From: Oceanispirochaeta sp.
GTDB lineage: Bacteria > Spirochaetota > Spirochaetia > DSM-2461
Length of the DNA stretch: 64,000 nucleotides
Direction of reading: 5' to 3'
NCBI GenBank assembly: GCA_963663385.2
Contig: CAXXXD010000002.1
Location: 1,760,001-1,824,000, forward strand
The notes below the pieces were generated by a model that saw nothing but the letters and a program-made list of their open reading frames with translations, searched no databases and was not told the DNA's origin. Shown here piece by piece: positions 35,475 through 38,567 of the stretch. The position numbers and the translations under genes were made by a program. How positions within the stretch are numbered: position 1 is the stretch's first letter; each line of letters begins with the position of its first letter.

Positions 35475-36167
35475 TCAAAACTGGAGGGATAATACCCTCC
35501 GTCTGTTATTGGTAAACACCCCGTCCACTCCCATTTCCTGCATGGCAGCAAGTTCTTCGGGCAGGTTAACCGTATAAACGAGAACCTTCAGCCCTCTTGA
35601 ATGGGCATCCTCCACTATCTCCCGGCTGATATTCTCCCTGTTCATGTTAAGAGACCAGGCTCCCATGCCATCCGTCAGGGAGGCCAGTCCCAGAGGCAGG
35701 CTGCCGATAATGGGCGAAACCCGTACTTCAGGTCGCAATTCTTTAAAACGCATCAGTTCAAAGTGATCAAAGGAAGAAACCAGAAAATTCTCCCAACTGC
35801 GTCCTTTGCGGTTAATTTCCTCATCTAGGATATGGGAGACTTTAAGGGCTGATCCGTTTCCTTTAATTTCAATATTCAGGGGGCAGCGGCTGTCAATCAG
35901 ATCAATGATTTCCTGCAGGGTCGGAACCTGTTCTCCTTCGCCTGCATCCAGTGCCCTGATTTCCTTAAAAGTCAGGTTCCTTATGAAACCGCTGCCGTTC
36001 GTCGTGGTATCGACTTTATCATCATGCATGACTACGACTTCACCGGTTTTGCAGATAGCCACATCAATCTCTATCATATCAACGGAATCCTTCAGAGCCT
36101 GTCTGATGGATTTCAGTGTATTCTCAGGAGCCAGCTCCGAGGCGCCCCTGTGTCCGATTATCAGCAT
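35475..36167 (-). CDS. Glycerophosphodiester phosphodiesterase (GlpQ/UgpQ family)
   Basis: IGHRGAS..PENT, IEIDV, VVMHD, NIEIK, YTVN, GVDGVFTN. Confidence 0.93.
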   Translation of the reverse strand: MLIIGHRGASELAPENTLKSIRQALKDSVDMIEIDVAICKTGEVVVMHDDKVDTTTNGSGFIRNLTFKEIRALDAGEGEQVPTLQEIIDLIDSRCPLNIEIKGNGSALKVSHILDEEINRKGRSWENFLVSSFDHFELMRFKELRPEVRVSPIIGSLPLGLASLTDGMGAWSLNMNRENISREIVEDAHSRGLKVLVYTVNLPEELAAMQEMGVDGVFTNNRRRVLSLQF

Positions 36168-36226
36168 TAATATCTCCTATAAAAAGTCAATCATAAGCCT
36201 ATTAACAAGCTTACAATTGAACCGGA

Positions 36227-37339
36227 TTACCCAGTTTTTACGGCATTGAATGCAGCCGCCTGCATCTTCAAGTACTTATCATCCGGAACCATCTTCAACG
36301 GATCAAAGGGTTCACGGGTTTTCAATATGGAGTACACTACCGTACTCATCTTTCTTGCAGAGGCGATAATACTCGTGCCGCTGCCCTTGTTCTTCTTCAT
36401 CGCTCTGTACTTCGTCATGATACGGTAATTGCCAGTCGTTTTCCGAGTTCTAACCATTCCCATAACACACTGAACAAATGCCGTTCTCAGTTCTACAGCC
36501 CCTCTCTTTGTTATATGCCCATGATGAATCGTCTCATTGGAGTTCTGCACCCATGGTACAAGACCGGCATAAGCCGAATACTTCTTGGCACTGGCGTACC
36601 GCTTGATATCATCCGTATAGGCCCTAATAGTCGATGCCGTTATCAATCCGACTCCCGGGATCGTCTGCAATAACTGTACATCCTCATCTTCCTTTACAAG
36701 TTCCAGCAGGACTTTCTCTAACTGCTTGACCTGGTTCGAAACCTGATCTATCGTAGAAAGCAGCGGTTCTATCGCTTTGGCAGCGCTTCCGAAACTCCTA
36801 TGGTCCACGAGACCGATGAGGATGCGCTGCCTTTCTTTTTTACTCTGCAGCGCAGCTCTTTTTGTTTCAATTCCATACCCTAGAAGCAGTCCGTGAACCT
36901 GATTCTTCAAAGATACGACTGATTTAACAAGGATAGTTCTGGATTTAAGAACTCTACGGATATCCTCACTCTCCTGAGAACAAAGCTGTGATTCGGGAAG
37001 CATATCTTTTTCCAAGAACTCTGCTAGAGTTCTGGCATCATGCTTATCCGTCTTTTTCACTGATTCATTTACAACTTTGAATTTCAGTGTATTCACAACC
37101 ACCACCTCAATCCCTGCTAGCAATAGCTTGTTACGGAAGAACCGGGCATTTCCTGTTGATTCCACTGCAGCCCTAACATCAAGGCCCTCTTCTGTATAGG
37201 ACACTGCTTTCTCAAGAAATGCTCTGTAACCGTCCTCAGAGGTCGGATACATTCCTGATTCACAAATGCTTCTATCATCACTCAGGAAACAGACTGTTAA
37301 CTGGGATTTGTGCAGATCCACTCCGATACTCATCTTCAT
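36227..37339 (-). CDS. IS110-family DEDD recombinase/transposase (370 aa)
   Basis: GVDLHK, VESTG, KTDKHDA (DEDD RuvC fold); IPGVG; YAGLVP..QNSNE (putative catalytic Ser); ITKRG. Start at MKMSIG with AGGAG RBS. Confidence 0.95.
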   Translation of the reverse strand: MKMSIGVDLHKSQLTVCFLSDDRSICESGMYPTSEDGYRAFLEKAVSYTEEGLDVRAAVESTGNARFFRNKLLLAGIEVVVVNTLKFKVVNESVKKTDKHDARTLAEFLEKDMLPESQLCSQESEDIRRVLKSRTILVKSVVSLKNQVHGLLLGYGIETKRAALQSKKERQRILIGLVDHRSFGSAAKAIEPLLSTIDQVSNQVKQLEKVLLELVKEDEDVQLLQTIPGVGLITASTIRAYTDDIKRYASAKKYSAYAGLVPWVQNSNETIHHGHITKRGAVELRTAFVQCVMGMVRTRKTTGNYRIMTKYRAMKKNKGSGTSIIASARKMSTVVYSILKTREPFDPLKMVPDDKYLKMQAAAFNAVKTG

Positions 37340-37344
37340 ACCTT

Positions 37345-37535
37345 CGCTCCTATTGCCTAAAACAGCGCCTGTACGGTGAATTGATTCCATTCTCCTATCC
37401 GGTCTCGAAGACCATTGAATGTTTCGGTCACGGCTCTTCATTCTCCTGTACGGTCTCGGAGACCAGTAAAAATGGCGAACAGTAACCTGGCTGTTCTAAA
37501 CGATGTTTAGAACATTGTATCAATCCACAAGCCTA
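37345..37535 (-). ncRNA. Putative bridge/seek RNA in the upstream non-coding end of the IS110
   Basis: 5' hairpin TGTTCTAAAC/GTTTAGAACA (37492-37514), then two homologous stem-loop units (37439-37474, 37388-37421) whose variable parts match target and donor junctions. Ends approximate. Confidence 0.7.
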
Positions 37536-37562
37536 TGAAGACTTTTTATCATTCCTCCTGTG

Positions 37563-38567
37563 CTAAGTTGTTTCACGTATTTTTAAATCTGTTGGCATAA
37601 TCATCTCTACGGGGGGAGAATCGGGATCATCCAGAAGCTGAAGCAGTCTAATGGCAGCCAGCTCTCCCATTTTATCAATATGAATATGAGTCGTTGTCAG
37701 GGGGAGGTAGGACATGGATGCCCAGGGAATATCGTCAAATCCGGCAATCCCCAGCGTGGAAGGTACTTTTATCCCCTCCTGTCTGGCACGATTCAATAAT
37801 CCGATTGCCATGGCATCGTTTACGGCAAATACGGCGGTTCCTTCTGCTATCTCATCTTTTATTTCGTCAAAAATCATTTCGCCTGTCTGAAGGGTTGTAT
37901 CTTCCTTATTTAATATAAACGGGGTAAGCCCCGCTTTTTCCATGGACTCTTTATATCCCTGAATGCGCTCCCTGTTGTTGTACCATTCAACAGGCCCTGT
38001 TATATGGATTATTTTCCTGTAGTTCCGGTTTATCAGATGCTCGGTAATGTTGAAAGCGCCAATACGGTCATCACAGATTACCGTATTGGCACGGGTTTCG
38101 GGCAGTTTGTTTTCAAGGAGTACTACCGGTTTTCCCAGTGCCATGATCTCCATAATAAAGCGCGGGCTGAGGCTCTGCCCGCGCAGGATGAATGCATCGC
38201 AGCTGTCGGACTGAATGGCAGGGATCTTTGACGGGTTATTAAAATCTTCCAGTTCTACCGGGATAACCAGACTCTGGTAGCCTCTTTTGCGGAAGGTTTC
38301 ATCAAAAGCCAGGGTGGAATGATGGAAATAGACGGAATCATACTGTCCCATTCTCTGACGGCCGATTATACCGATAAATCTGCCGGTAGACGGCATGGCT
38401 GTCTGAATGATCGGCGAGAAATCATCTTTATGCTGTTTCAATTCGTTCAGTACAAGATCTCTGGTCTTCTGGCTGATACCGGGTTTATCGTTTAATACCC
38501 TTGAAACTGTGGAAAGGGATATTCCCAGTTTATCTGCAATACTTTTAAGTCTGACTCGCTTATCCAT
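37563..38567 (-). CDS. LacI-family transcriptional regulator
   Basis: HTH LKSIADKLGISLSTVSRVLN; FAVNDAMAIG, AGFDD, PLTT. Confidence 0.95.
   Translation of the reverse strand: MDKRVRLKSIADKLGISLSTVSRVLNDKPGISQKTRDLVLNELKQHKDDFSPIIQTAMPSTGRFIGIIGRQRMGQYDSVYFHHSTLAFDETFRKRGYQSLVIPVELEDFNNPSKIPAIQSDSCDAFILRGQSLSPRFIMEIMALGKPVVLLENKLPETRANTVICDDRIGAFNITEHLINRNYRKIIHITGPVEWYNNRERIQGYKESMEKAGLTPFILNKEDTTLQTGEMIFDEIKDEIAEGTAVFAVNDAMAIGLLNRARQEGIKVPSTLGIAGFDDIPWASMSYLPLTTTHIHIDKMGELAAIRLLQLLDDPDSPPVEMIMPTDLKIRETT

Follow-up and report, generated by a model that had tools for sequence, protein, structure and literature searches.

An IS110-family element of Oceanispirochaeta whose predicted bridge RNA appears to read translation starts

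The window analyzed here is the whole of a 64,000-nt stretch from Oceanispirochaeta sp. (contig CAXXXD010000002.1), and all coordinates given below are window positions. It contains an IS110-family element on the minus strand, the body of which spans 36179..37554 (1376 bp, or 1381 bp when one copy of a pentamer shared with the target is included). The element consists of a non-coding left end of 219 nt, a recombinase gene encoded on the same strand (36227..37336, minus) that yields a 369-residue protein with DEDD/RuvC-like and Tnp domains, and a right end of 48 nt, the sole content of which is a terminator-like hairpin. The original prediction, made from the letters of this locus, had proposed that the left end contains twin loops of the bridge RNA type. 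The analysis presented here indicates that positions 37376-37528 of the minus strand very probably encode a bridge RNA that reads gene starts and belongs to an IS110-family element that is intact and has recently been active.

Searches with the recombinase polypeptide returned the Pfam domains DEDD_Tnp_IS110 (PF01548, 8.6e-21) and Transposase_20 (PF02371, 4.6e-19), and a score of 228.2 bits against a cut-off of 140 was obtained with the NCBIfam model NF033542, "IS110 family RNA-guided transposase." Among solved structures, IS621 (8wt6_A, E 9.3e-16) and ISCro4 (9t56_A, E 1.3e-15) were matched with similar scores, and in a single-sequence search the similarity to IS621 was significant over the C-terminal half only. 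The E, D-x-x-D and Ser positions of IS621 aligned with the recombinase, whereas the first catalytic D is suggested by a Pfam match that begins at residue 4; the start of the protein, ATGAAGATG, is common to relatives. A recombinase gene with 74.8% identity is present on a 32.8-kb plasmid of Thiospirochaeta perfilievii (NZ_CP035808.1, 31089-32183), and this plasmid is a possible route by which the clade has spread. With respect to assignment of the recombinase to the IS110 or IS1111 branch, PGAP names on plasmids give just "IS110 family" or "ISLin1" (30% identity).

The host genome contains 10 copies of the 1.38-kb element that are 100% identical, and an 11th match covers flank only. Alignment of the 10 copies together with their flanks showed identity from 36174 to ∼37559-37561 and divergence beyond, which bears out the element ends that had been assumed. 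All 10 copies carried CTCCT on each side. Read on the transposase strand, every copy has the form flank-AGGAG, GAATGATAAAAAG ... TTGACTTTTTAT-AGGAG, followed by N6-8 and ATG. In the window, the left junction AGGAG (37559-55) is preceded by the flank bases CAC (37555..37563 in all, minus strand), and the right junction AGGAG, which is CTCCT on the plus strand, lies at 36174..36178, with a probable core of AG (CT on the plus strand) at 36174-36175. The first bases of the element are the left tip GAATG (37554-50), followed by the left inverted-repeat arm ATAAAAAGTC (37549-40), the two together spanning 37540..37554 of the minus strand. The right arm of this subterminal inverted repeat, 36179..36188, reads GACTTTTTAT on the minus strand and is the reverse complement of 37540-37549. 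The repeat is 10 bp long in the window copy and 8 bp across the clade.

In an alignment of 29 distinct leaders (MAFFT), left-tip columns G1, G5, A6, T7 and A9-A11 were invariant, and GAC-TTTTTAT was retained in those relatives for which a right end was found, the search pattern itself having demanded GAC-TTTTTAT. The assembly graphs of four DNA runs contained the element as a unitig of 36174-37559 (or 36173-37561), the depth of which relative to its flanks was ∼8-9x in three runs and ∼3-4x in the fourth. In contigs from these DNA runs, the same insertion was also carried by a strain with a flank diverged by ∼4%. The element is intact, multicopy and recently active.

Inspection of the insertion sites revealed that they are the starts of genes. 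In the window, the right-junction AGGAG is followed by ATATTA-ATG, the ATG being the start codon (36165-36167) of an intact glycerophosphodiester phosphodiesterase (GDPD) gene (35475..36167, minus strand). The 230-residue product of this open reading frame (ORF) gave a GDPD Pfam match of 9.4e-44 that covers profile positions 1-241 of 244, and the right-junction AGGAG probably serves as the Shine-Dalgarno sequence of this gene. On the other side of the element, 3 nt separate AGGAG from the end of a same-strand LacI-type gene, whose stop codon TAG (37565-63) supplies, with its G (37563), the opening base of the 9-nt target-arm match described below. The insertion separates the LacI-type regulator gene (37563-38567) from the GDPD gene (35475-36167), apparently a two-gene unit with an original intergenic gap of ∼17 nt. 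Across the 10 genomic copies, ATG was found 6-8 nt past AGGAG in every case and opened an ORF of at least 98 codons, and a same-strand ORF ended no more than 65 nt upstream in four.

The same arrangement was observed in relatives. These comprised 76 loci from reference genomes (32-79% identity), which are mostly from Spirochaetia but include records labelled deltaproteobacterial, Patescibacteria-like, Bacteroidota and Lentisphaeria, together with 258 metagenome relatives, 80 of which were kept for analysis. Among 97 distinct sites, ATG lay 3-11 nt past AGGAG in 89 and at 0-2 nt in 3, and no ATG was present within 14 nt in 5. A Lentisphaeria family with only 33% identity has ..AAGGAG before its left end, with AGGAG in that place in six of the eight copies with a left junction (nine anchored), and a right end of the form ..TATCATAGGAG, then N5-9 and ATG; ATG was within 9 nt in 10 of 11 copies. 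The clade therefore inserts at Shine-Dalgarno/start-codon sites in the same orientation as the gene, and AGGAG remains on either side of the element.

The non-coding left end holds the proposed RNA. Its core of 153 nt (37376..37528, minus strand) is delimited by a basal stem (37528-37519 / 37386-37376) that surrounds a 5′ stem-loop, a target loop and a donor loop. The 5′ stem-loop (37492..37514, minus strand; 10 bp and a 3-nt loop) corresponds to a perfect hairpin that had been noted originally and was recovered in a repeat search at 37492-37501 / 37505-37514. The target-binding loop (37426..37487, minus strand) is closed by GGUUAC (37487-82) and GUGACC (37431-26) and has an inner hairpin at 37464-37452; the inner hairpin of the donor loop is at 37413-37401 of the same strand. 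Each loop presents two single-stranded arms that flank a GGUCU/AGACC hairpin. Repeat searching identified the loop units as a 32-nt direct repeat, 84% identical at a spacing of 51, and the plus-strand strings from which the twin loops had first been recognized, CATTCTCCT-GTA-CGGTCTCGGAGACCA-GTAAA-AATG at 37439-37474 and CATTCTCCT-ATC-CGGTCTCGAAGACCA-TTG-AATG at 37388-37421, 51 nt apart, are present as quoted.

The donor loop reads the element itself. Its 5′ arm, CAUUC (37417..37421, minus strand), is the complement of GAATG (37554-37550), the five bases with which the element begins. Across the 29 aligned sequences, 137 of 145 possible pairs between this arm and the left tip were Watson-Crick, a value reached by none of 20,000 permutations, and the compensatory sets GTATG/CATAC, GCACG/CGTGC and GCATG/CATGC were observed. 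The donor 3′ arm, GGAUAGGAG (37392..37400, minus strand), contains AUAGGAG, in agreement with the right terminus of the element followed by the pentamer (TATAGGAG). ATAGGAG was invariant in 29 of 29 aligned RNAs, as was the right tip TATAGGAG in elements with the tip found; given that neither varies, the correspondence is a match and does not allow a test of covariation. The matches reported in the original prediction, 7 of 9 between loop-2 CTCCTATCC (37392-400) and the element end CTCCTATAA (36174-82) and 6 of 7 between AACAUUC and ATCATTC (37548-54), were reproduced.

The target loop was analyzed in 166 pooled loci, of which 123 fitted the loop-1 pattern, 105 had a left flank and 102 had a right flank; the 43 loci excluded were divergent families, truncated copies and copies cut by contig ends. 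The target 3′ arm, GUACAGGAG (37443..37451, minus strand), contains ACAGGAG, equivalent to the upstream flank followed by the Shine-Dalgarno sequence, and would pair with the antisense strand. As claimed, loop-1 CTCCTGTAC (37443-51) matches the flank CTCCTGTGC (37555-63) at 8 of 9 positions. In a set of 22 variants and 72 sites, this arm matched the flank at position -1 in 0.88 of families, against 0.50 after permutation, and at position -2 in 0.78, against 0.29 (0 of 5000 permutations in both cases), whereas positions -3 and -4 gave no signal. Covariation of the 3′ arm had also been seen in a smaller first data set (0 of 20,000 permutations). In the host genome, AC preceded AGGAG at 8 of 10 occupied sites but at only 193 of 1963 unoccupied NNAGGAG-N4-9-ATG sites.

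The target 5′ arm, CAUUUUUACU (37465..37474, minus strand), includes an invariant CAU which, with the next 3 nt, reads the sense-strand sequence NNN-ATG; its terminal CU would be the probable core binder. When sites were anchored on ATG (34 variants, 87 sites), the three bases adjoining CAU covaried with the three bases before ATG. The signal fell on a single diagonal (z = 2.6, 4.0 and 3.0), the sum of which was reached by 0 of 1500 permutations, and offsets of ±1 and ±2 were not significant. That one exact diagonal is seen with null neighbors argues against a mere composition effect. Anchoring of this arm on the core gave weak results (of 5000 permutations, 471 equalled the observed value for register 0, 159 for register +1 and 3 for the best of three) and was replaced by anchoring on ATG. 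The second target arm, described in the original prediction as poorly fitting, is anchored on the start codon, through CAU plus 3 nt, with slack in its distance to the core.

In the host genome, the match of this arm to occupied sites was 6.0 of 8, compared with 3.75 of 8 at the 193 unoccupied ACAGGAG-ATG sites (p = 1e-5), and AAA stood directly before ATG at 4 of 10 occupied sites compared with 95 of 1963 that were unoccupied. Relative to the 13-mer that the two target arms predict, the 10 occupied sites had 0, 0, 1, 2, 3, 3, 3, 4, 4 and 4 mismatches. This 13-mer occurs exactly in the genome at two occupied sites and one other, where ∼0.2 would be expected from composition.

When the donor loop is included, covariation with the DNA to be read is seen for three of the four guide arms, and it is on this basis that the clade is considered to target Shine-Dalgarno/start-codon sites. 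Covariation of the arms with flanks and element ends, together with the intact IS110-family recombinase downstream, upholds the identity of the RNA as a bridge RNA. The suggestion that the system is potentially reprogrammable is supported only by natural variation, at two target, approximately three start-codon-proximal and three donor positions. What is targeted, moreover, is not just any sequence but a ribosome-binding site.

Several observations weigh against this interpretation. In the larger data set, the AGGAG-anchored position matrix of the 5′ target arm showed no clean diagonal, and the four core-proximal bases of this arm covaried in neither frame. Contiguous pairing from arm to core needs a 5-nt spacer, which was found at 16 of 97 sites, the commonest spacer being 6 nt (48 of 97). 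The conserved CA of CAU is paired by RNAalifold with the UG that follows the 3′ arm, so that CAU may have a structural role. Of the 13 positions of the ideal site, 4 are mismatched in the window's own, all on the 5′-arm side. In a 16-copy family from Spirochaetia, the flank at -2 is mostly A though the guide has U, and in one Leptospira relative the arms are altered and ATG is missing from the vicinity. Handshake guides of the IS621 kind, sought by inspection, gave no fit without a 1-nt bulge and no covariation; the two bases after each 3′ arm are AA, AU, AC or AG and, without such a bulge, are unpaired with positions 6-7 of the other DNA. No empty site, circle junction or variant was present in the assembly contigs of the four DNA runs, the element sequence was found in none of the RNA-seq runs searched, and a promoter scan detected no sigma-70-type site on the RNA strand of the integrated copy. 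An Rfam scan of 35500-38500 with E values up to 10 returned four chance-level matches (E 5.9-8.7), none of them within 37336-37560.

Some of these observations would be accommodated if the RNA were a bridge RNA that reads target DNA through its 3′ arm alone, the 5′ arm not being a guide and CAU having a structural role in combination with UG. The C-G and A-U pairs formed between CAU and UG are indeed invariant in 28 of 29 sequences in the RNAalifold consensus, and a preprint reports that half-matched substrates are used by IS621. The A-rich spacers of occupied sites would then reflect easy melting of DNA or a preference of the protein. The window copy could be read in this way, being perfect at ACAGGAG but matched at only 2 of 6 spacer positions, as could the weakness of AGGAG-anchored covariation, in which register 0 was reached by 471 of 5000 permutations. 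A 5′ arm that does not guide, however, is not expected to covary with ATG-anchored sequence on exactly one diagonal (z = 2.6, 4.0 and 3.0; 0 of 1500) with neighbors that are not significant. Nor does it sit well with a 6-nt AGGAG-ATG spacer that is twice as frequent at insertion sites (48 of 97) as at the AGGAG-ATG starts of the host genome (24% of 1166), or with occupation of two of the three exact 13-mer sites in the genome. Reading by the 3′ target arm alone is consequently regarded as unlikely.

It is far less probable that the leader serves solely to regulate the transposase mRNA in cis from its 5′ untranslated region (UTR), for example through attenuation or control of translation, and that the AGGAG strings act as decoy or sequestered ribosome-binding sites and the likeness to the flanks is a by-product of insertion. 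The region does lie directly upstream of the transposase start, AGGAG occurs in both loops, and the role of the RNA is at present predicted; a leader that contains no guide, however, would not covary with the pair of bases before AGGAG, the triplet before ATG and the first five bases of the element. Its layout, moreover, agrees with the published bridge RNA architecture (PMC11208160, PMC11208158).

Folding of the 220 nt upstream of the transposase gene gave -68.8 kcal/mol for the minus strand (z = -4.1, with 0 of 200 shuffles as good) and -49.5 kcal/mol for the plus strand (z = -1.2, with 23 of 200 shuffles as good). The consensus structure of the 29 leaders comprises 26 pairs in four helices, namely the basal stem, the loop-1 closing stem with an extension, and both inner hairpins. 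Eleven of these 26 pairs exhibited compensatory changes. Of the cells in the alignment, 96.8% were paired, compared with 20-45% after the partners were slid by 1-3 columns, and changes on both sides were seen in 72 cells, compared with 23.8 in shuffles (0 of 500 reaching the observed value). Helices 2 and 3 were 96.5% and 97.2% paired, with three and two pairs, respectively, changed on both sides. A hairpin is present at the position of the 5′ stem-loop in every relative but was left out of the pair count because it is not aligned by MAFFT.

Given that the conserved U-G pairs would be mismatched on the other strand, the RNA strand is fixed as minus, the same sense as the transposase gene, and in this respect the plus-strand letters quoted in the original prediction (z = -4.1 for the minus strand against -1.2 for the plus) require correction. 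That the functional RNA is instead the plus strand, antisense to the transposase leader, is hardly credible: the loop strings were first noticed there and the Watson-Crick hairpins form there too, but its fold is no better than that of shuffled sequences (z = -1.2, 23 of 200), the conserved U-G pairs (for example, columns 114-141 in 28 of 29 and columns 100-158 in 15) become A-C mismatches, and its arm geometry would mirror that published for IS621 (PMC11208160, PMC11208158).

Comparison with IS621 is based on its published descriptions (Durrant et al. 2024, PMC11208160; Hiraizumi et al. 2024, PMC11208158). As in IS621, the RNA of the Oceanispirochaeta element is in a long left end that precedes a DEDD/Tnp recombinase gene, and the order of modules is 5′ stem-loop, target loop, donor loop. 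Within each loop, likewise, two arms read opposite strands around a short core, which is included in the ∼7 nt of the 3′ arm, and the core-binding end of the 5′ arm terminates in U. The 5′ arms of IS621, by contrast, are described as holding the RNA-sense sequence of the upstream flank and right end, whereas those of the present element are complementary to the RNA-sense strand of the downstream flank and left end. The polarity is thus reversed, as judged by the published description of IS621 and not by its sequence. Inverted repeats of the IS110 group are described as 2-3 bp, against 8-10 bp for the subterminal repeat here; the basal stem here encloses all three modules; donor and target share 5 bp instead of the 2 bp of IS621; and the 5′ target arm covaries only beside a fixed CAU, 5-8 nt from the core. 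By the same published text, arm polarity and repeat length place the element outside a strictly defined, IS621-like IS110 group.

The seekRNAs of IS1111-type elements (ISEc11, ISKpn4, ISPa11 and ISPst6) are described as having the complement of the top strand first, the IS110 type being the reverse (Siddiquee et al. 2024, PMC11187229). The present RNA resembles these, in that the complement of the transposase-sense strand comes first and subterminal inverted repeats are present. The same text gives a rule for IS1111-type elements of extensions beyond the repeats of 7 bp on the left and 3 bp on the right (PMC11187229). The terminal extensions here sum to 10 bp and fit this 7/3 rule if the crossover is AGG|AG. 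Unlike the arrangement described for the IS1111 type, the RNA lies upstream and not downstream of the transposase gene, and the inverted repeat is 8-10 bp and not 11-13 bp; upstream seekRNAs are noted as exceptions in ISMtsp17 and a few others (PMC11187229). Set against the published IS1111 features, the element therefore agrees in repeats and arm order, and in the 7/3 split under an assumed crossover point, and differs in carrying its RNA in the left end.

A bridge RNA of an IS110-family element is known as a kind; layout and gene-start targeting set the present one apart. Full-text literature searches, bioRxiv and the supplements of the 2024 papers being outside their scope, yielded no account of a bridge RNA with a Shine-Dalgarno site as its programmed target, and the covariation tables of Durrant et al. 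may already include this clade. Elements of the IS900/IS901/IS902 type from Mycobacterium avium, also of the IS110 family, have a target of the same class: they insert in one orientation between ribosome-binding site and start codon (consensus of the type CATG-N4-6-insertion-CNCCTT), with the transposase of IS900 opposite to the target gene. Unlike these, the element described here would have its crossover within the Shine-Dalgarno sequence, a copy of which remains at each end, and its transposase is co-oriented with the target gene. The hosts also differ, being Spirochaetia and other phyla here and actinobacteria for the IS900 type. The literature search returned no text on target choice by IS900.

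In the mechanism that we propose, loop 2 would read the joined ends of the excised circle, with CAUUC paired to the left tip GAATG and AUAGGAG corresponding to the right tip TATAGGAG. Loop 1 would read a translation start, in which ACAGGAG represents two flank bases plus AGGAG, and CAU with three further bases pairs with NNN-ATG; the preferred spacer between these two target words would be 6 nt, with slack. Recombination would occur inside the AGGAG common to donor and target, probably at its final AG (CT on the other strand). The element would accordingly separate the 5′ UTR from the coding sequence, invariably in the orientation of the gene, and AGGAG would remain at both junctions. Transcription, recombinase binding, a circular intermediate and the exact crossover point are what we infer here, and bridging is suggested by analogy with IS621.

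The position of the crossover is hidden by the CTCCT that donor and target share, and a core is for this reason unprovable. The CT core proposed originally is nonetheless compatible with the RNA: the terminal 2 nt of the 5′ target arm are CU in this element and AU, UU or GU in relatives, the U being invariant in 29 of 29, and the 3′ arms terminate in AG. Crossover at the last AG of the pentamer is suggested because the 5′ arm ends in CU, both 3′ arms end in AG, and the extensions would then be 7 and 3 bp.

The RNA would be transcribed either from an upstream host promoter or from a promoter rebuilt in the circle. Since insertion is at gene starts and co-oriented, an integrated copy is downstream of a host promoter by construction. 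Across the joined ends, TTGACT-17 nt-TAAAAA with an upstream TG can be read, the -10 element of which is without its final T; a junction promoter might be formed in this way, and TGATAAAAA (37551-43) may represent an extended -10 box. At the other end of the element, a consensus scan identified a terminator-like hairpin of 15 pairs followed by CUUUUUAU (36187..36220, minus strand). This hairpin is directly after the transposase stop codon, and its U-run is within the subterminal inverted repeat. In 20 of 20 elements folded, a hairpin was found 0-10 nt before the U-run, the stem sequences being different. The structure looks like an intrinsic terminator that would close the transcription unit of the element, and insertions may therefore be polar on the downstream gene. 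An argument from read-through that insertions are benign was dropped given this conserved terminator-like hairpin.

A broader interpretation, to which we give somewhat less than even credence, combines a two-word gene-start target (NN-AGGAG plus NNN-ATG) with a layout intermediate between IS110 and IS1111. The two words would be read on opposite strands, one by the 3′ arm and the other by a 5′ arm anchored on the start codon, with tolerance in a spacer of ∼6 nt, so that the recombinase would be programmed for a functional class of site, translation starts, and not for one sequence. Every insertion would then be downstream of a host promoter and oriented for transcription of the guide RNA and recombinase, with the element's own terminator closing the unit. 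The IS110-type gene order, combined with IS1111-type polarity and long subterminal repeats, could represent a surviving intermediate.

Bridge RNAs are in development as programmable DNA-insertion tools and, to our knowledge, almost all that is understood of their mechanism comes from IS621 and ISCro4. The clade described here spans several phyla, through the 76 reference-genome loci and 258 metagenome relatives, and would offer a working natural design in which the 3′ target arm is dominant and the 5′ arm apparently binds away from the core with slack in spacing. If such off-core binding is correct, the synaptic complex has a more flexible geometry than would be expected from the structures of IS621. 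Homing in the sense orientation to a motif that every bacterial gene has may explain the spread across phyla. The mixture of IS110 and IS1111 features bears on the divergence of the two groups and, if the intermediate layout is real, would be a relic of the proposed move of the bridge RNA between element ends. For annotation of the host genome, the element accounts for 10 identical repeats and for the place of each one exactly before a gene.

Some individual sequences depart from the common pattern. In the metagenome-assembled genome (MAG) from Spirochaetia that holds the 16-copy family (L012-L025 and L030), the upstream flank was TTAT-AGGAG in 8 of 14 distinct sites. These flanks copy the right tip of the element itself and are a closer match to the donor arm than to the target arm, the guide of which is GUUU; they may be pseudo-donor sites that were used or products of "half-match" recombination. 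In the relative from a Leptospira MAG (L062:1256-1500, 2600-2700), the 3′ arm reads ..UUGAGAG and CAU is absent from the 5′ arm. This relative has ..TTTTTAGAG as its left flank, no ATG follows its right end, and a second GTTTTTAGAGG is present ∼90 nt downstream. It may be a retargeted member of the clade.

In the window, CCTGTACGGT occurs twice, at 37445-37454, where it covers part of the inner hairpin and the 3′ target arm, and at 37368-37377, just past the basal stem. The second copy corresponds to a motif, CCGnAYAGG, that is conserved in relatives independently of the guide. Because this motif does not track the guide, the identity seems coincidental, or the motif may be part of a downstream hairpin.

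Just past the right end of L040 (∼2646-2670), a partial second right end, CTCACGGTTGACTTTTTAT, stands 6 nt beyond the right tip TTTTTATAGGAG and could be a tandem or nested remnant. L072 (1501-1945 and ∼130 nt upstream) is a truncated copy that has lost the bridge RNA gene up to the AGGAG of the 3′ target arm, at which it is joined to unrelated DNA ending ..AAAAATAGGAG; it looks as if the guide-encoding DNA was itself used as a recombination site. In L065 (1264-1500), part of the target loop, GAGACCGTGAAGGAG, is tandemly duplicated, giving two 3′ arms.

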